From: Candidatus Fermentibacter sp.
GTDB taxonomy: Bacteria > Fermentibacterota > Fermentibacteria > Fermentibacterales > Fermentibacteraceae
Assembly: GCA_030373045.1 (NCBI GenBank)
Contig: JAUCPW010000018.1
Location: 17,078-81,077 of the forward strand
Direction of reading: 5' to 3'
Length of the DNA stretch: 64,000 bases
A program made the translations under genes and the position numbers. Shown here piece after piece: positions 3,853 through 54,810 of the stretch. A model generated the notes under the pieces. It was not told the DNA's origin, did not search any database, and saw only the letters and a program-made list of their open reading frames with translations. How positions within the stretch are numbered: the stretch's first letter is position 1; every line of letters begins with the position of its first letter.

Positions 3853-4193
3853 TCATCAGGTCTTCTTCCGACGTTAGGCCGCAGCATCTCTCGGACACCG
3901 GCTATTCGAAGGTCGCCAGCAGGCTCCTGGCCGGCACCCGGGACGGCTGCAACAAGATCACGCTCAGGATGCTCACGATCCAGTCCGGCGGGCACATCCC
4001 GAGGGAGGCCGCCAGGGGCGAGAGGGTCATATACGTGCTCTCGGGCGGTGGCGAATACGTCGATGCGGACGGGTTCGCCCACGAGATGAACGCAGGCGAC
4101 ACGGCCGCCGTGCCGGCCTGGGAGGTTTTCCACATGCAGAACAGAAGCGGCGGGGACCTGGTGCTGCTGATCGCTGCGGGGCCGAACCAGTGA
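3849..4193 (+). CDS. cupin-domain protein
   Basis: 114 aa; GERVIYVLSGGGEYVDADGFAHEMNAGDTAAVPAWEVFHMQN beta-sandwich cupin-like pattern; ATGA-coupled to hydE and larB. Confidence 0.45.
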   Translation: MIIRSSSDVRPQHLSDTGYSKVASRLLAGTRDGCNKITLRMLTIQSGGHIPREAARGERVIYVLSGGGEYVDADGFAHEMNAGDTAAVPAWEVFHMQNRSGGDLVLLIAAGPNQ

Positions 4194-19321: not shown

Positions 19322-19335
19322 CCCCCCCATCCGGT

Positions 19336-19367
19336 CGGTGTCAGAGGAAAAAATGTAAAGTAATCAG
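19336..19367. repeat. left terminal inverted repeat of IS-like element
   Basis: matches reverse complement of 20426-20457 at 31/32 positions. Confidence 0.6.
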
Positions 19368-19400
19368 GGTAATTGATGATCGAGCGAATTTAAATGTGAA

Positions 19401-19420
19401 GGCCGGTCGCATGACCGGCC
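19401..19420. repeat. perfect 8-bp stem hairpin (ggccggtc GCAT gaccggcc) inside the element, upstream of tnpA
   Basis: read directly; lies between the left inverted repeat and the AGGAGG RBS of the transposase gene. Confidence 0.4.
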
Positions 19421-19443
19421 TGTCCTTATAAGGAGGGGCGGGG

Positions 19444-20418
19444 ATGGGTCGTCGAGTGAGACTCGATCAGACGGATTCTCTGCACCACGTGATGACGAGG
19501 ACCGTCGAGAGAAGGCCGCTGTTCGAGGATGACACCGACAGAGTCGCATTTCTCGATGTGCTTTCCAGGGTCTGCTCGCTGACCGGCACGAGGATTCTCG
19601 CCTGGGCGCTGATGGGAACCCACGTCCATCTCCTCGTGAGATGCGCCGAGTATCCCCTTTCCGGCTTCATGCAGCAGATTCTGTCGAGCTATGCCCGCTG
19701 CTTCAACCGGAGGCACGACAGGACCGGCCATCTCTTCGAAGACAGGTTCAGATCGATCCTGGTCAACGACGAGAGCTACCTTCTGTCCGTCATCCGGTAC
19801 ATCCATCTCAATCCCGTGGCGTCGGGGATGTTGGATTCCGTGGAAACTCTCGGGAAGTATCCCTGGACCGGCCATAGAGCCGTTGTCACAGGTGTCGCGA
19901 TCGACGGTCAGGACATCGACGGGGTGCTGTCGCTCTTCGGAGGGAGCAGGAGTGAAGCCCTGTCGTCATATCTCAACATGATGGAATCGGATTCTCCGGC
20001 ATGGGAGTACGGAGGAGAGGGTTTCATCCTCGGAAGGAAGGGTGTTGTCAGCAGCAGGCTGTCAGATCTGATCTCGATGGACTCCCCTCGCCGGACAGGA
20101 CTGCTGGGGGATGTGGAGTCCAGTGCAGCTGTCGCAAGATCTGTGGTCGGATCGGTTTCGATCGATGTGAGGAACAGGGCGGCCGAACACGAAAAGGTCG
20201 AGTCAATCCTGAGCGAGACTCTCTCGAGGTTCAATCTGAGTCCCGGGGTTCTCACAGGGAATTCTCGAAGGGGTTCAGTCACACAAGCTCGAGCATATGC
20301 GGCCAGACGCCTCGTGACAGAGGCGGGGCTGAGTTTCACTGAAACGGGCAGGTTGCTCGGGATGACCAGACAGGGCGTGAACTATCTATTGAACTGCAAG
20401 ACGATAATAGTCCGATAA
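19444..20418 (+). CDS. tnpA: IS200-like HuH (Y1) tyrosine transposase with C-terminal DnaA-C-type helix-turn-helix
   Basis: AGGAGG RBS; …RPLFEDDTDRVAFLDVL…LAWALMGTHVHLLV (HuH), RYIHLNPV (catalytic Tyr region) as in IS200/REP-associated Y1 transposases; C-terminal RAYAARRLVTEAGLSFTETGRLLGMTRQGVNY resembles DnaA C-terminal HTH. Confidence 0.7.
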   Translation: MGRRVRLDQTDSLHHVMTRTVERRPLFEDDTDRVAFLDVLSRVCSLTGTRILAWALMGTHVHLLVRCAEYPLSGFMQQILSSYARCFNRRHDRTGHLFEDRFRSILVNDESYLLSVIRYIHLNPVASGMLDSVETLGKYPWTGHRAVVTGVAIDGQDIDGVLSLFGGSRSEALSSYLNMMESDSPAWEYGGEGFILGRKGVVSSRLSDLISMDSPRRTGLLGDVESSAAVARSVVGSVSIDVRNRAAEHEKVESILSETLSRFNLSPGVLTGNSRRGSVTQARAYAARRLVTEAGLSFTETGRLLGMTRQGVNYLLNCKTIIVR

Positions 20419-20425
20419 CACGAAA

Positions 20426-20457
20426 CTGATTACTTGACATTTTTTCCTCTGACACCG
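20426..20457. repeat. right terminal inverted repeat of IS-like element
   Basis: ctgattacttgacattttttcctctgacaccg. Confidence 0.6.
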
Positions 20458-20471
20458 GACGGAGGCGGGGC

Positions 20472-22802
20472 ATGATGGTGATGACGGTGGCGGTTGCTCT
20501 GATCGCGGGCCTTCCGGGGCCAGCCGATGTTTTCGACTGGCCGGCCTTCCCCGGGCCCGGCATGGTCGAGACGGTCAACCCGGCCTGCCTGGCGTGGCAG
20601 CCCGACATGCTCCTCTCGGTCGGGCTCCCGTCCAGCGACAGCTCACTGCACCGGCCCGACCGCGTCTTCCTCGGCGCGCCCGGTGTCGGTTTCTCGGGCT
20701 GGTGGGAGAACGGGGGCGATCTCAGGAGGTTCACCGCCGGATCCGCCTTCGGGATCGGCGGGAGCCTGGCCGCCGGAGCCGCCTATTCGTGGATGGATCC
20801 GGTCTCGGGCGGGCCCTGGGACGGGGTCGGATCCTGGGACATCGGTCTCTCGTTCCGGCCCTCGGCCATGATCTCCGCCGGCCTGGTCCGCCACGGGGGA
20901 TACGACGGCGGTTCCGTGGAGGGAGACGCATCCCTGAGAGCCGGCCTGGCCGTCAGACCCCTGGGGGACCGGCTGACCTTCACCGGCAACGCTGTGACCG
21001 GCGAAGACTTCGACGATTTCGAGTTCGACGGAGGCCTGGAATACAGGCCAGTTCCGGGGGCCGCGATCAGGCTCGGCCTCGCCGAGGACCGTGTGTCCGC
21101 CGGGATCTCCACCGACTTCGGGCATCTCGGCGCCGCCTTCGCGGGCCTCGCCCAGGATGACGAGTACTCAGGCGGCCGGGCGGAGATCCGGCTGACGTCC
21201 TCCCCCCGTGCGGGCATCCTCCCGCGCCGGCACACATACGTGAGGATAGAGACGGGAACGACCCGAGAGGAGCCCTCCCGCGCCTTCCTGGGCCCGGTCG
21301 GGCGCAGCTTCTCCGAGGAGATCCTGCTGGTGGAGCGGGCGGTCGAGGATCCGTCGGTCGACGGGTTCATAGTCGAGACCGACGGGGGAACCGGCACCGC
21401 CGCGCAGGCAGAGGAGCTGAGGACCCAGCTCGCCCGGGCCAGGGGAATGGGCAAGCAGGTCGTGGTCTACTCCGGTTCCCCCGGCAACATCGAATGCTAC
21501 CTGGGCAGCTCGGGCACCGAGTTCTGGATGCACCCCGCCGGCGAGACGTTCCTCACCGGTTTCGCCGCCCACGGCATCTTCATCCGCGACCTGCTCGACA
21601 ACATCGGGCTCTACCCGGACCTCGTGCGGATAGGCGAGTACAAGAGCGCCGCCGACATGCTGACCCGGTCCGACATGTCCGAGGCCCAGAGGATCGCCGA
21701 GACAGCCCTGCTAGAATCCTTCCACACCGAGCTCTTCCGGGCCCTGACGGACGGCCGCGGCCTCGAGCCGCCGCAGATGGTCTCCCTGCTCGAGGAGGGG
21801 ATGCTGAACCCTCGCGAGGCCGTCAGCGCCGGGCTCGTCGACAGCACCGCCTACCCCGACGAGATCCAGGAGAGGCTTTCCGAGACCAACGGTCACGGAA
21901 TAGCGGTGCAGAGCCTGGACGAGTACGGGAACTCGATCCCGGTCGGCGACGCCTGGGGTCCCGAACCCCGAATAGCCGTCATAGTGGCCACCGGCTTCAT
22001 CACCCGCGGCTCGAGCGGCTACTCGTTCCCCCTGGGCGAGACCATGGGCAGCGAGACGATCTGCGGGCTCGTCAGGAGCGCGGCAGCGCGGCCCGGCGTG
22101 AAGGCCGTCGTCATCCGCATAGACTCGGGCGGCGGAGACAGCTTCGCCTCCGAGGAGATGCTGCACTGCATCGAGGACGTTTCCGACGAGATGCCCGTAG
22201 TCGTCTCGATGGGAGGCGTCGCAGCCTCCGGGGGATACTACATGGCCTGCGGCGCCGACAGCATCTTCGCCGACGACTTCACGATCACCGGCTCCATAGG
22301 TGTCATCGGGGGGAAGATCGCGGCGGGAGACCTGCTCGACAGGATCGGCGTCGACGTGGAGACGGTCTCGCCCTATCCGATGGCCGACATGTTCAGCATC
22401 TTCTCGAGATTCTCCGACGCCCAGAGGGAGAACGTCGAGGAGTCGGTCGGCCACTGCTACGACCTTTTCACTCAAAGGGTGGCCGAAGGCCGCGGCATGA
22501 CCCCGGCTCAGGTCGATTCGATCGGCCGGGGACGCGTCTGGTCGGGATCCGACGCCGTGGAGATCGGCCTCGTCGACAGGATCGGCGGTCTGGCCGACGC
22601 GGTGCGCTGCGCGGCGGGCATGGCCGGGCTGGACGATGACTGGGTGCCCGCCGTGGAGGTGTATCCCAGGCCGGGCCTGTTCGAGGGATTCAGCATGAGC
22701 CCGTTCGGCGGCGCCTCGTTGCTCGATCTCGAGAGCCTGCTGGAGCAGGTGTCGGCCTTCGACAGGCCGCTCTACCTGATGCAGCCGATCGTGGTCGAGT
22801 GA
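20472..22802 (+). CDS. sppA: signal peptide peptidase SppA (protease IV, two S49 domains) with an N-terminal Gly-rich extension
   Basis: two ClpP/S49-like repeats: …GKQVVVYSGSPGNIECYLGSS… and …VVVSMGGVAASGGYYMACGADSIFADDFTITGSIGVIGGK…; ~230 aa extension precedes first S49 domain. Confidence 0.7.
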   Translation: MMVMTVAVALIAGLPGPADVFDWPAFPGPGMVETVNPACLAWQPDMLLSVGLPSSDSSLHRPDRVFLGAPGVGFSGWWENGGDLRRFTAGSAFGIGGSLAAGAAYSWMDPVSGGPWDGVGSWDIGLSFRPSAMISAGLVRHGGYDGGSVEGDASLRAGLAVRPLGDRLTFTGNAVTGEDFDDFEFDGGLEYRPVPGAAIRLGLAEDRVSAGISTDFGHLGAAFAGLAQDDEYSGGRAEIRLTSSPRAGILPRRHTYVRIETGTTREEPSRAFLGPVGRSFSEEILLVERAVEDPSVDGFIVETDGGTGTAAQAEELRTQLARARGMGKQVVVYSGSPGNIECYLGSSGTEFWMHPAGETFLTGFAAHGIFIRDLLDNIGLYPDLVRIGEYKSAADMLTRSDMSEAQRIAETALLESFHTELFRALTDGRGLEPPQMVSLLEEGMLNPREAVSAGLVDSTAYPDEIQERLSETNGHGIAVQSLDEYGNSIPVGDAWGPEPRIAVIVATGFITRGSSGYSFPLGETMGSETICGLVRSAAARPGVKAVVIRIDSGGGDSFASEEMLHCIEDVSDEMPVVVSMGGVAASGGYYMACGADSIFADDFTITGSIGVIGGKIAAGDLLDRIGVDVETVSPYPMADMFSIFSRFSDAQRENVEESVGHCYDLFTQRVAEGRGMTPAQVDSIGRGRVWSGSDAVEIGLVDRIGGLADAVRCAAGMAGLDDDWVPAVEVYPRPGLFEGFSMSPFGGASLLDLESLLEQVSAFDRPLYLMQPIVVE

Positions 22803-51027: not shown

Positions 51028-54000
51028 GTGTTTTCGGGGGGAGAATCCTTGATCCTTCTGCTTCTGGCGACAGCCCTGGCCCTGCCTGAGGGGCAGGCAG
51101 GCGTGCTCTCCGACGTCCGGTCGGGGTCCGCGGGCTTCTCGGCCACTGTGGAGGTCCCCGGGCCGTCATTCCGGTCCGACGGGGACGTCTACTACCCCGT
51201 GATCCCCGGCTTCTCCTCCTGGGCGGTCGAAGGCGGCCTGGTCAGGCCATGCATCGTCTTCTACGTGCCGCTACCCCCTGGCGCGTCGCCCGAGCTCGCC
51301 TTCACGGTCGAGGACAGGAGGGAGGCGCCCCCCGCCCCGCGGGGAAGGCCGGCGGTCTCTCCGCACCTCGAAGGCACGGGCCTGTCCACCGTCACGGTCT
51401 ACGATGACCGGGCATCGGCACCCCCTCCCGCCGTGGTCGAGATGTCGGTCGTGAGGGCAATGGGTGTCGATCTGGCCCAGGTCAGGATCAGCCCGTTCGA
51501 CGGGGAGGGATACGGCGACTATGCCGGATCGGTCGGCATCTCCCTGGAATGGGGGGGAGCGCCCGGCTCGGAGCCCCTCTCCGACGGCCCACTTTCGCTG
51601 ATATGCCCCGGGGGCGTGGTATGGTGGCCCCACAGGGCGCAGAGAACGGCCGCCAGCCCCTTCTGGGGGATGCCCTGGGCGCGGATCGAGACCTCGGTCG
51701 GCGGCTGCCACGTGCTCACCGGCGCGATGCTCGACTCCGCCGGAGTAGACATCCTCGGAGCCGACTCCCAGACCCTGCGGATGCTGACCGGCCCCGGTCT
51801 CATGTTCGACCTGGAATGGCGCGACGAGACGCATGCCGCATCCGAGACCTCGATACTCGTCCTCGACGGCGGCGACGGCTCCTTCGACGCCGCGGACAGC
51901 ATCCTGTTCGTGGGCAGGGCCCTGTGGCGCTTCGAGCCTTCGCCGGAATCGACGCCTCCGCTCGGGCGCCTCTCGCACAGGTACGACACGCGGAACGTCT
52001 ACTGGCTGACCTGGGGCGGCGAGCCCGGCCGGATGATGGAGAGCGTACCGTCCTCCCCGGACGGCTCCCCGGCATGGCCGGGCGACCTCCTCGCCCCCCT
52101 CTTCGTCGAACAGGAGGCCTTCTGGCTGCCGGGCCACGAAATCGAGACCGGATGGGTATGGACCGAGCTCTCCACGAGCTACGACTCCTACTTCCCGTTC
52201 ATGGCCGAGAGGGTCGGGGAGCCGGCCGACATCCTCCTGTCGTTCGTCCCGGACGAGAATGTGACGGGACAGCTGAGGATCACCCTCAACGGCGACTCGG
52301 TGGGCGGCTGCTCGTTCTCGGGCTACCCTCCCCCCTTCACCGTGCTCCTCGAGGACGTCGGGATCGCCGAAGGATCCAACACCATCATCACGCACCTGAC
52401 CCTTACGGGCGGCAGCGGGAGCATCTACTTCGACAACATGACCGTCTCGTACCCCAGGCTTCCCGCGGATGCCGGCGGGGCCGACCTCCTGCCTTCGGGC
52501 GCCCCCGACGGGAGGTACACGCTCTCGCTCGGCCTGGAAGGCGACGGACCTGCCAGGGTTTTCGACTGCTCCAGGCACTATGCGGTCGACCTGCTCGACG
52601 GCGCCTCCGATCAGGGCGGCACGGTAAGCCTCTCCCTCGACATCGGGCAGGAATCGCGCCTGCTGGCAGTCCGCCCCGGCGACCTCAGGACGCCCAGTTC
52701 CATCTCCCCCGCCGAACCGGGCAGGATAGTCGGCACCCTCGACGGCGCCGACGCGGTGATCATCGCGGCGGACATCCTCGCCGAAGCCTCGGCCCCTCTC
52801 GAGGCGCTCATGGAGGCGGGGGGGCTCCAGGCGGAACTCGTCACCCTGGGCGAGGTCTACGACGAATTCGGCCAGGGCGTGGCCGATCCCGGAGCAGTGA
52901 GGTCGTTCATATCATGGGCCCTGGACACGTGGGACCCCGCGCCATCCGACTTCATCTTCGTTGGCGACGGGCACTACGACGTGCTGAACCGCAACTCCCC
53001 CGAGCCGTGCCTCTTCCCGCCGTGGCTGAAGCTCGGCAACTCGGACCAGCTCTTCGACGACTTCTACGTCATGACGACCCCCGGCCAGTTCCTGCCGGAG
53101 GCCTCCCTCTCGCGCATCCCCGCCGACTCCCCTCAGGACGTGTCCGTCTTCGTCGCCAAGGCCGCGGCCTACCGCTCGGGAGATGCCGCGGGGGCCTGGA
53201 GCGACAGGATACTCCTCACTGCGGACGACGAGTGGGGAAACGGTACCCCGAGCGAGACGTGGCACACGTACACATGCGAACTGCTGGCGGACAGCTGCAT
53301 CTCTCCGATGTACGACAGGGGCAAGTTCTACCTCATCGAGTACCCCTGGCCCGAGAGCGGCACGCATCCCTTCAAGCCCGAGGCCCAGGAGGACTACGTC
53401 GAAGCCCTTTCCGAAGGCTGGCTCGCCGTCCTGTTCTTCGGGCACGGCTCGCACGACCAGATCTGCCACGAGAAGCTACTGGTCAACAGCGACATAGCCC
53501 GGATCGACAACGGCCCCAGACAGCCCGTGATGGTCTTCGCGAGCTGCGACGTGGGGAGCTTCGAGCTCGTCTCCGCCGACTGCATGTCGGAGGAGTTCGT
53601 CCTGAACCCCGGCGCCGGGGCCATAGCGACCATCGGGGCCACCCGGGGAACGAACGCCAACGAACCGCTCTTCGAGGACTTCTGCTCGATGCTCTTCGAC
53701 GGGACGTCGGCCACCGGCACCGGGCAGGCCCTCTGGGCGTCGAAGCTGCTGAACCCGTTCCAGAACTCCTACTACTACGTGCTCTTCGGAGACGGGACGA
53801 TGAGGCCGATGCGGCCGGCATCCGGAACCCAGGTCGCGCTCGGCGGCGACGCCATTCTCCGCGGCAGGGTGAATCCCCTCGAGGCCTCGTACCCCTCGGA
53901 CTGCCTGGCCAGGGTCCGTGTCACCGAGAGCGCCGCCTGGACGGAGTACACCTGCCTTGGCGGAAACCTGATCGAATACCTGAAGTACGGCTCGACGGCC

Positions 54001-54810
54001 TTCTCGGGCTCCTTCCTGACCTCCGGGGGCCTGCTGGACCTCGACTTCTTCATGCCCCTCCAGTCCGACACCGGCGCGTACGGGAGGGCGGCGGCCCTGG
54101 GGATGTCCGATGCGGGCGGCGTCTCCGACTGGCTGGAATGGGTCCCGGTCGCGGACTCCGGCGGCTATGCGGCGGACTCCACGGGGCCTCTGATAGAGCA
54201 GAGCCTCGAAGGCTGCGCGGGCGAGTCCCCGGTCACGGGACCGGACCCCGTGTTCCAGGCTGACCTGTCCGATCCGAGCGGCATATGCACCTTCGGGGGG
54301 GGGGCCGGCAGGTCGATCCTGATCAACCTCGACTCCCAGGCCTTCGATCTGAGCGCCTTCTTCGCCTATGACCAGGGCAGCTCGACGGCCGGGAGCCTCG
54401 AGTACCAGCTCCCGCACCTGCTCGAAGGGCCCCATAGGATCATCATGGCCGCCTGGGACGGCATGGGCAACTTCTCCCGCGACACCCTCGACTTCCAGGT
54501 CGTCGAGGATACCGGCGTCTCGCTCGACGAGTTCCTGGTGTACCCCAACCCCTCCGCGGGCCCTGTCTGCTTCAGCTTCAGGGCCTCCACGGACGGCTCC
54601 GCGAAGGTATCCATCTACACGATCGCGGGCAGGCGCATCAGGGAGATCTCGAGCGACCTCTCCGCGGGCTACTGCCAGGTCCTGTGGGACGGGCTCGACG
54701 CCGACGGCGACGAACCGGCCAGCGGAGCCTACCTGTTCGTGCTGGGATTCGAGGGAGACGGCGGCTCCGTGACGGAACGCGGGGTCATCGCCCTTGCAAG
54801 GGACGGGTGA
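51028..54810 (+). CDS. giant peptidase C25 (gingipain-like) with FlgD-Ig / T9SS-type CTD
   Basis: GTG start, signal peptide; …ILLTADDEWGNG…VLFFGHGSHDQICHE (His)…VFASCDVGSFE (Cys); C-terminal LVYPNPSAGPVCFSFRAS…VSIYTIAGRRIREIS…VLWDGLDADGDEPASGAYLFVL… CTD. Confidence 0.7.
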   Translation: MFSGGESLILLLLATALALPEGQAGVLSDVRSGSAGFSATVEVPGPSFRSDGDVYYPVIPGFSSWAVEGGLVRPCIVFYVPLPPGASPELAFTVEDRREAPPAPRGRPAVSPHLEGTGLSTVTVYDDRASAPPPAVVEMSVVRAMGVDLAQVRISPFDGEGYGDYAGSVGISLEWGGAPGSEPLSDGPLSLICPGGVVWWPHRAQRTAASPFWGMPWARIETSVGGCHVLTGAMLDSAGVDILGADSQTLRMLTGPGLMFDLEWRDETHAASETSILVLDGGDGSFDAADSILFVGRALWRFEPSPESTPPLGRLSHRYDTRNVYWLTWGGEPGRMMESVPSSPDGSPAWPGDLLAPLFVEQEAFWLPGHEIETGWVWTELSTSYDSYFPFMAERVGEPADILLSFVPDENVTGQLRITLNGDSVGGCSFSGYPPPFTVLLEDVGIAEGSNTIITHLTLTGGSGSIYFDNMTVSYPRLPADAGGADLLPSGAPDGRYTLSLGLEGDGPARVFDCSRHYAVDLLDGASDQGGTVSLSLDIGQESRLLAVRPGDLRTPSSISPAEPGRIVGTLDGADAVIIAADILAEASAPLEALMEAGGLQAELVTLGEVYDEFGQGVADPGAVRSFISWALDTWDPAPSDFIFVGDGHYDVLNRNSPEPCLFPPWLKLGNSDQLFDDFYVMTTPGQFLPEASLSRIPADSPQDVSVFVAKAAAYRSGDAAGAWSDRILLTADDEWGNGTPSETWHTYTCELLADSCISPMYDRGKFYLIEYPWPESGTHPFKPEAQEDYVEALSEGWLAVLFFGHGSHDQICHEKLLVNSDIARIDNGPRQPVMVFASCDVGSFELVSADCMSEEFVLNPGAGAIATIGATRGTNANEPLFEDFCSMLFDGTSATGTGQALWASKLLNPFQNSYYYVLFGDGTMRPMRPASGTQVALGGDAILRGRVNPLEASYPSDCLARVRVTESAAWTEYTCLGGNLIEYLKYGSTAFSGSFLTSGGLLDLDFFMPLQSDTGAYGRAAALGMSDAGGVSDWLEWVPVADSGGYAADSTGPLIEQSLEGCAGESPVTGPDPVFQADLSDPSGICTFGGGAGRSILINLDSQAFDLSAFFAYDQGSSTAGSLEYQLPHLLEGPHRIIMAAWDGMGNFSRDTLDFQVVEDTGVSLDEFLVYPNPSAGPVCFSFRASTDGSAKVSIYTIAGRRIREISSDLSAGYCQVLWDGLDADGDEPASGAYLFVLGFEGDGGSVTERGVIALARDG

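Follow-up and report, generated by a model that had tools for sequence, protein, structure and literature searches.

Does a transposase-family gene closed in by long inverted repeats mark recent mobile DNA, or can it be a settled part of its genome? Such a gene, of the Y1 HuH family, lies in a 64,000-nucleotide stretch of Candidatus Fermentibacter sp. DNA (assembly GCA_030373045.1, contig JAUCPW010000018.1, positions 17,078 to 81,077 of the forward strand; hereafter the window), between a small membrane-protein gene and sppA. The original prediction, made from the letters of the window alone, described an AT-rich island resembling an insertion sequence (IS), inserted between these neighbours, and considered it either a REPtron-like unit or an undescribed IS variant. 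We conclude that the feature is probably a TIRtron, with terminal arms that serve the encoded enzyme as cognate sites and recur in short, non-autonomous doublets of related genomes. The unit is neither undescribed nor recent. Passages of Di Nocera, De Gregorio & Rocco (2013; PMC3733652) describe genes resembling RAYTs, the transposases associated with repetitive extragenic palindromes (REPs), which lie between long terminal inverted repeats (TIRs) rather than between REPs; the gene was named TIRYT and the unit TIRtron, and TIRtrons have hardly been studied. The analogy with REPtrons was the right one, as the protein belongs to the REP-associated Y1 branch and the repeats belong to the unit, while the notion of a new IS variant gives way to an arrangement already named and already placed, in passages of Quentin et al. 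(2018; PMC6006769), in subclass 2.1 of TnpA-Y1.

Anatomy of the unit and its protein

The two arms (Table 1) are inverted, 30 nt long and identical at 29 of 30 positions, the sole mismatch being A against C at arm position 21, an asymmetry also kept in the related loci L003 and L012. With extra flanking bases they form the 31/32 repeat at 19336-19367 and 20426-20457 that was originally reported to bracket a single open reading frame (ORF), and a repeat search widens the pair to 45 nt at 89% (19323-19367 and 20426-20470). This is the strongest inverted repeat in the window and is unique within it, the arm 31-mer and its 17-nt outer core occurring twice each against 0.00 expected from shuffled sequence. 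The single ORF between the arms encodes 324 aa; 77 nt of leader precede it and 8 nt of trailer follow. By our own count the GC content of the arms is 33%, with about 57% for the island and about 68% for the flanks, so that 'AT-rich' holds relative to the surroundings and not in absolute terms. Inspected by eye, the arms present no visible self-complementarity and no GTAG tag.

The protein scores 52.6 bits against the Pfam Y1_Tnp model (cutoff 23). Its nearest NCBIfam model is REP_Tyr_transpos, at 67.3 bits under the equivalog cutoff of 80, and the NCBIfam transpos_IS200 model gives 23.3 bits against a cutoff of 55. The predicted HuH (HVHLL; H60, H62) and tyrosine (Y119-IHLNPV) motifs are present, with H60, H62 and Y119-IHLNP invariant in an alignment of 31 homologs and a spacing of 57-59 aa between H60/H62 and Y119. 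The invariance of the catalytic residues across the family argues that DNA cleavage and joining have been retained. In an AlphaFold2 model of mean predicted local distance difference test score (pLDDT) 77, confident over residues 10-180 and 246-318, the Y1 HuH core (about residues 10-145) continues into a helical extension modelled confidently to about residue 180, followed by a low-confidence linker (residues 185-245) and a helix-turn-helix (HTH) resembling DnaA domain IV (about residues 246-318). In fold the model comes closest to 4ER8, the complex of E. coli TnpA-REP with a REP hairpin, at a template modelling (TM) score of 0.74, followed by the IS200, ISDra2 and IS608 transposases. A Pfam DUF987 match (residues 137-176, 20.8 bits) lies under its cutoff and was set aside as noise.

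The proposed DnaA-type HTH falls below threshold in the single sequence (Bac_DnaA_C, 15 bits against 31.5). A profile of the family nevertheless matches the DnaA domain IV structures 2hcb, 1l8q and 1j1v with E values of 2e-7 to 2e-6 over profile positions 237-329, and Pfam finds Bac_DnaA_C in 20 of the 31 members, HTH_23 in five and HTH_28 in two. By these profile comparisons the predicted C-terminal DnaA-type HTH is confirmed at the level of the family. This variety of C-termini is the one given for subgroup 2.1.2 in passages of the TnpA-Y1 classification (Bac_DnaA_C, HTH_23 or HTH_28; Quentin et al., 2018), which also place 20 of 26 TIRYTs in subclass 2.1, report subclass medians of 58-67 aa for the HuH-to-Tyr distance, and rank subclass 2.1 second-largest in TnpA-Y1, in 14.9% of strains. 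Judged by its domain content and by that placement of the 20 TIRYTs, the unit fits a putative assignment to subclass 2.1 (2.1.2).

Arms in related lineages and distant homologs

Across orthologs of three lineages, A to C, the outer 17 nt of the arm (GGTGTCAGAGGAAAAAA) do not vary. Each lineage has its own version of the inner 13 nt, nearly alike in the left and the right arm, reading ...ATGT[A/C]AAGTAATCA in the window (lineage A), ...ACGTAAAGTAC[G/T]CA in L015 (lineage B) and ...ACGTCAAATACGCA in L009 (lineage C). The distant ortholog L083 has related arms of 48 nt, and in other organisms four homologs (32-36% identity) are each bracketed by TIRs of their own. The outer motif GGTGTCAG agrees at seven of eight positions with GGGGWSAS, which according to passages of Di Nocera et al. 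occurs in the majority of TIRtrons, not in all; its counterpart is GGGGTCGT in L083 and GGGGACGT in homologs L077 and L078. This partial fit stands alone, the unit agreeing with the TIRtron/TIRYT description on every other testable feature. In the 17 loci that contain the Y1 gene or its end, an arm adjoins every gene end that the locus reaches. The original prediction would have been abandoned for a repeat unrelated to the gene and a protein with no HuH match; what was found is a solid HuH match and a repeat that accompanies the gene in all of these loci.

Doublets built from the same arms

Other copies of the repeat, which the original prediction proposed to look for, exist in related genomes, where they are paired and span about 196 bp. 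They were collected from related genomes and from metagenome contigs fetched by arm sequence, a procedure biased against empty or degraded sites. In one related metagenome-assembled genome (MAG) an arm 20-mer marks eight loci, of which one is a full unit and the other seven are pairs at a distance of about 177 bp, and a degenerate arm 23-mer retrieves 60 metagenome loci. All loci together comprise 53 short elements (194-199 bp) and 12 full units (1119-1122 bp), and none is of intermediate length. Each doublet consists of two 30-nt inverted arms and a 134-138-bp spacer, whose GC content of 39-47% compares with 64-70% in the flanks and 57-76% in ordinary intergenic DNA. The predicted fold is a 30-bp stem made by the two arms, the spacer having no fold of its own; the spacer as a structured RNA was likewise rejected, with fold z-scores centred on zero. 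The doublets are polar, in that a weak subterminal sequence of about 12 nt differs between the two ends, and in 10 independent interior clusters of lineage C the two arms differ at position 25, one having T and the other A. Outside the arms, both sides present the weak common consensus C[C/A]GTCC (40 distinct flank pairs). A split host palindrome or terminator as the insertion target was rejected, since no site-specific complementarity of the flanks was found (permutation p = 0.67).

The spacers are far less constrained in sequence than in length. Within one genome, spacers of different sites are no more similar than shuffled sequence and cannot be aligned. At orthologous sites the arms differ by 0-3% and the spacers by up to 36%, with almost no indels. 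The first alignments were striking, with flanks and arms near 100% and the spacer at 74%, as would be expected of targeted hypermutation of the kind driven by diversity-generating retroelements. This candidate was rejected once 900-bp flanks were included, for the spacer divergence is only about one to two times that of the fastest codon phase of the neighbouring genes, which points to near-neutral drift under a length constraint rather than hypermutation. The ratio of transitions to transversions is 1.94 in spacers against 1.08, and no conclusion is built on it. Strand-specific deamination of an extruded loop was also set aside, as no significant GC or AT skew appears after the elements are oriented by their asymmetric arm position (p = 0.14 and 0.53).

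The arms of the doublets and those of the gene share their lineage-specific states, orthologous sites included, and the variable arm positions 21 and 28 agree between the two arms in 25/26 and 23/26 cluster-states respectively. A site at tRNA-Ser is occupied in lineages A, B and C, and a site at tRNA-Phe and a further one, site 0, in A and C. As these old sites carry the arm states of each lineage, arms at many loci change in concert with the arms of the gene itself.

Inverted repeats around short, AT-rich intergenic segments, with one repeat at many loci, are also what would be seen if the arms were recombination sites of invertons and the segment between them flipped. In about 24 orthologous comparisons between samples and lineages, no interior is turned round relative to its flanks; L016, L023 and L038 agree in the orientation of the asymmetric arm position 25 at the tRNA-Ser site; and no invertase of the serine or tyrosine recombinase type is associated with the elements. 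To our knowledge, Y1 HuH enzymes do not invert duplex DNA. We regard inversion as scarcely credible.

A second enzyme-repeat pair was noted in lineage C (F. daniensis), which possesses a TIRYT paralog, P0024, 35% identical to the first (L076:2827-2898 and 4036-4120). Its TIR is a different one (CAGATCGTTTTTACAATCTGGACCAAA) and occurs twice on each side. Further copies of it (L018:233, L026:3260, L067:3901, L068:2131, L022:911-1297 and 3354) lie directly beside doublets of the first family, so that one genome holds two enzyme-repeat systems with their repeats clustered together. The window contains no copy of CAGATCGTTTTTACAATCTGGACCAAA.

History of the locus

The SppA encoded in the window is 100% identical to an NCBI protein of Candidatus Fermentibacter sp. 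At 89, 84, 61 and 48% identity, the Y1 orthologs have the same two neighbours, the small membrane-protein gene and sppA, and across lineages the identity of the Y1 protein rises and falls with that of the neighbouring proteins. In the one related MAG scanned there is a single full-length arm pair, and the full-length instances in the fetched loci (12/12) all represent this one locus. Being single-copy, syntenic and co-diverging with its neighbours, the gene behaves as a domesticated, vertically inherited gene and not as a recent insertion. Its GC content at third codon positions (GC3) is 0.70 in the window against 0.84-0.89 in the neighbours, and in every lineage checked it is lower (0.61-0.76) than that of the neighbours (0.77-0.94). 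The low GC3 is therefore a stable property and not the trace of a recent transfer.

An empty site, the second item proposed for a search, is found in L082, a relative of intermediate distance (SppA 69% identical) represented by a 2.52-Mb contig. Here the sppA locus has no Y1 gene; between the upstream stop codon and the sppA start codon lie 15 nt (ACGGAGGTAGGACGA), the stop running straight to ACGGAGG. In L083, which is more distant than L082, the gene is present with the same right junction, ...CCGG/ACGGAGG. The simplest reading of an occupied site in the more distant relative and an empty one in the nearer is that an ancestral unit was lost cleanly in one lineage. A check of the flanks for target-site duplications gave none.

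These observations bear directly on the view of the island as an active, autonomous IS200-like variant with TIRs, recently inserted between the membrane-protein gene and sppA. Its TIRs, its transposase-family ORF, its GC content below that of the surroundings and the empty site in one relative are all features that such an element would have. Set against them are the constancy of position and the co-divergence with neighbours from 89% down to 48% Y1 identity, the presence of one full-length pair in the scanned MAG and of one locus behind every full-length instance, the lower GC3 in each lineage checked, and the low score with the IS200 model (23 against 55). A recent active insertion is thus very unlikely, and the description of the island as IS-like and inserted is not sustained.

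The rates of change at the locus are not uniform. Third-position divergence of the Y1 gene is twice that of its neighbours against L015 and about equal to it against L003 and L012, and sppA is mosaic for recombination; an elevated mutation rate of the Y1 gene was not built on. In comparison with L003, sppA (window positions 20472-22802) has diverged by 12% (25% at third positions), and the Y1 gene and three upstream genes by 3-5%, a contrast that indicates recombination mosaicism between close Fermentibacter lineages with a breakpoint near the right arm.

Gain, loss and homogenisation of doublets

Doublets have also been gained and copied. True paralogs are represented by L018_277 and L018_4453 and by three copies within about 4 kb beside tRNA-Ser(TGA); the homology of paralogs stops at GGTGTC...GACACC, with no target-site duplication. 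Two of the copies at tRNA-Ser(TGA), E1 and E2, are 97-98% identical within strains, while orthologous E1 copies are 87% identical between strains whose flanks differ by 0.8% or less. Greater likeness within than between strains indicates conversion or re-copying among neighbouring copies.

Site 0 documents the two states of one site. Lineages A and C carry the element there, and the site is empty in L085 and L086, where the adjoining ABC transporter is 75-78% identical. In the occupied state the left arm starts directly after ...SLYEI/QI of the transporter gene, and in lineage A this 614-aa gene takes its last eight codons (GVRGKNVK) and its stop codon from the arm (L001:3624-3650). In the empty state (L085:7777-7923 and L086:2025-2132) the native gene ends in ...SLYSAQFKGVQL before its stop codon, with 42-81 bp to the next gene. 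The native C-terminus of element-free relatives is ...SAQFKGVQL, which the arm-encoded end replaces. No empty site occurs among the loci fetched by arm sequence, as the sampling predicts, and those found were reached only by way of neighbouring proteins.

Two further observations concern the surroundings of doublets. In L001 (3821-5405; lineage A) and L058, about 1.6-1.75 kb separate the site-0 element from the next conserved gene; this segment is missing in L068 (6313-6323), which makes it an indel directly beside a doublet. In L062 (1-3710; also L027, L041, L044, L050 and L066) three short elements related to one another, E1-E3, are found by tRNA-Ser(TGA) at distances of 1.5 and 1.9 kb, in a stretch of lower GC content (44-65%) that includes a Macro-domain gene, a nucleotidyltransferase/MarR-like gene and an unassigned 369-aa ORF and looks like a small genomic island with E1-E3 between its genes.

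The doublets are intergenic and abut gene 3' ends, and in the MAG three of the seven are found downstream of tRNA genes at a distance of 9-18 bp. Such positions invite the explanation that the arms are primarily host cis-elements (a 30-bp stem for the stabilisation or processing of RNA 3' ends, a protein-binding pair or outward promoters), with the Y1 protein as caretaker or regulator and the doublets spread by ordinary recombination. The retention of orthologous sites across lineages, the purifying selection on the arms and the fixed spacer length agree with this, as do the stop codon that one arm provides for the ABC transporter and a promoter-like match that overlaps the right arm of the unit and faces outward. 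It accounts poorly for the invariance of the catalytic HuH and Tyr residues across the family, for copies at new sites with exact arm-to-arm ends and no duplication, and for the homogenisation of neighbouring copies over their whole length. As the primary explanation we consider it unlikely. A host-level role of the arms is nonetheless compatible with a TIRtron whose enzyme recognizes them, and the two readings are not mutually exclusive.

Comparison with known systems

The likeness to TIRtrons, as described in the passages of the two papers cited above, extends to a RAYT-like Y1 HuH protein with a C-terminal Bac_DnaA_C or other HTH domain, long TIRs that are not of the GTAG type, an outer motif that agrees with GGGGWSAS in part, at seven of eight positions, and further genomic copies of the TIR, including dimers. 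For some TIRtrons, passages of Di Nocera et al. report 'moderately abundant' TIR families found as singles, dimers or groups. The TIRtron passages of these papers make no mention of the host phylum, Fermentibacteria. Nor do those passages report the strict length of doublets with a drifting spacer, the co-variation of arms and gene by lineage, the synteny with a clean empty site, or the AT shift of everything between the arms, all of which were found here.

With RAYT-REPIN systems and REPtrons (Nunvar 2010; Bertels & Rainey 2011, PMC3116915; Ton-Hoang 2012; Bertels 2017, PMC5581495) the unit shares a single-copy, vertically inherited Y1 transposase whose flanking repeat also forms dispersed extragenic inverted doublets, able to form a hairpin and persistent in the lineage, the doublet being the likely replicative unit; the closest solved fold is that of TnpA-REP (4ER8; PMC3479197). 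The differences lie mainly in the repeats. RAYT-REPIN systems have short palindromic REP hairpins with GTAG, in contrast to the 30-nt non-palindromic arms without GTAG found here; REPINs are about 100 bp, conserved throughout and present in hundreds of copies, whereas the doublets have a spacer of about 137 nt that is unalignable between sites and number in the tens. E. coli RayT lacks the additional DnaA-like HTH, and the score with REP_Tyr_transpos (67) is below that model's cutoff (80).

IS200/IS605 elements such as IS608 and ISDra2 have in common with the unit the HuH/Tyr fold of TnpA, insertion or loss without target-site duplication and a clean empty site. They are, however, multi-copy and horizontally mobile, with subterminal hairpins, no TIRs and proteins of about 130-150 aa without an HTH, unlike the single-copy unit with its 30-nt TIRs and 324-aa protein. 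Bacterial miniature inverted-repeat transposable elements (MITEs; RUP, NEMIS/Correia, ERIC) are, like the doublets, short, non-coding, bounded by inverted repeats, intergenic and near gene ends, but they have shared interiors, usual target-site duplications and DDE transposases in place of unrelated interiors, no duplication and a Y1 HuH partner. Identification as an IS200/IS605 element was rejected on the TIRs and single copy, as a MITE on the interiors and the absence of duplication, and as an inverton on the single orientation.

How the system may work

A course of events can be proposed from the paradigms of IS608, ISDra2 and RayT and from the anatomy of the unit. The TIRYT enzyme would recognize the arms, the DnaA-like HTH probably reading them as duplex DNA and the HuH/Tyr core nicking and rejoining one strand. 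Cutting would be most plausible when the two arms of a doublet anneal to each other in single-stranded DNA and so form a 30-bp stem. Doublets would thus occasionally be copied, excised or converted without target duplication, and the gene, with its own arms about 1.06 kb apart, would be essentially immobile and kept by the host lineage. Inferred are thus the assignment of domains to ligands, the putative cleavage positions, the single-stranded hairpin intermediate and any cellular role of the system or benefit to the host.

Several points weigh against the arms as sites of the enzyme and the doublets as its partners. The window contains no doublet, no region orthologous to the doublet sites of the fetched loci, no tRNA and no Rfam match, so that the link between gene and doublets is drawn from related genomes. 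Every characterised Y1 substrate is a self-complementary hairpin, which the arms are not, and no strand skew of the spacers points to frequent single-stranded exposure. Copy number is low (eight loci in the scanned MAG), and since most doublet sites are ancient and stably occupied, transposition must be rare. Conservation of the arms could equally reflect a host function unrelated to mobility. The doublet sample is made up of arm-bearing loci. In the literature searched, the name TIRYT occurs in PMC3733652 and PMC6006769 only, both descriptive in their TIRtron passages, and no functional work was found.

A broader proposal, tentative and to our minds rather doubtful, is that the TIRYT and the doublets of about 196 bp form a co-evolving enzyme-site system maintained by the host lineage and not a decaying selfish family. 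The arms at all loci would be kept matched to a changing enzyme specificity, only the distance between them (134-138 bp of spacer) would be constrained, and the DNA between them, spacer and gene alike, would be driven AT-rich by a distinct local mutational or conversion regime. The last element derives from the contrast of spacers at 39-47% GC and a Y1 GC3 of 0.61-0.76 with a genome GC3 of about 0.85. If this proposal is correct, TIRtrons would offer a tractable model of a domesticated single-strand DNA enzyme that structures bacterial intergenic DNA. The Fermentibacter system presents unusually clearly what a TIRYT associates with: doublets of fixed length whose arms are conserved over genus-level divergence while their spacers are not, co-variation of these arms with those of the gene, clean gain and loss with no target duplication, and homogenisation of neighbours. 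It also provides concrete substrates for biochemistry in the form of 30-nt arms at a spacing of about 137 nt, and it predicts that the arms should disappear or decay in genomes that have lost the gene. For annotation, it implies that 'transposase' calls of this kind in MAGs do not mark recent mobile DNA.

Boundaries of the unit and other features of the window

Measured against the empty site of L082, the unit occupies positions 19322-20458, and host sequence restarts at 20459 with ACGGAGG, the ribosome-binding region of sppA (Table 1).

Table 1. Features of the TIRtron unit, in window coordinates
Feature	Position	Strand	Remarks
C-rich outer extension, left end (CCCCCCCATCCGGTC)	19322-19336		inside the segment absent from the L082 empty site; last bases fit the weak outer consensus C[C/A]GTCC
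Left 30-nt arm, GGTGTCAGAGGAAAAAATGTAAAGTAATCA	19337-19366	+	outer 17 nt invariant in lineages A-C; inner 13 nt lineage-specific, matching the right arm
Y1 gene leader	19367-19443	+	GC hairpin GGCCGGTC-GCAT-GACCGGCC at 19401-19420; AAGGAGG ribosome-binding site at 19430-19436
TIRYT gene, 324 aa	19444-20418	+	HuH at nt 19621-19629; predicted catalytic Tyr119 at nt 19798-19800; predicted DnaA-domain-IV-like HTH at nt 20179-20397
Right 30-nt arm, reverse complement GGTGTCAGAGGAAAAAATGTCAAGTAATCA	20427-20456	-	C for A at position 21
Final GG of the unit relative to the empty site	20457-20458		from junction comparison of the window, L082 (empty) and L083 (occupied)

The hairpin in the leader has a 9-bp GC stem that is invariant in six orthologs (61-96% protein identity), the surrounding leader diverging by up to 32%. 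Its pattern is confined to loci with the gene leader and absent from all short elements, which rules it out as the real recognition hairpin of the Y1 enzyme. It has no T-run and is not a canonical terminator; being specific to the gene, it may act as an insulator or attenuator against read-through from the upstream operon.

At the other end of the unit, a sigma-70-like promoter match (window positions 20449-20476, + strand; CTGACA, a 16-nt spacer and CATGAT) takes its -35 box from the right arm, at the outer end, and faces outward into sppA. As the arms are inverted repeats, every element would carry an outward -35-like CTGACA box at both ends.

Elsewhere in the window, two tandem paralogous stretches of about 3.1 kb (51650-54730 and 55440-58520) lie about 3.78 kb apart from start to start. 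Identity over the matched segments is 72-87%, which would fit the duplication of a large gene.

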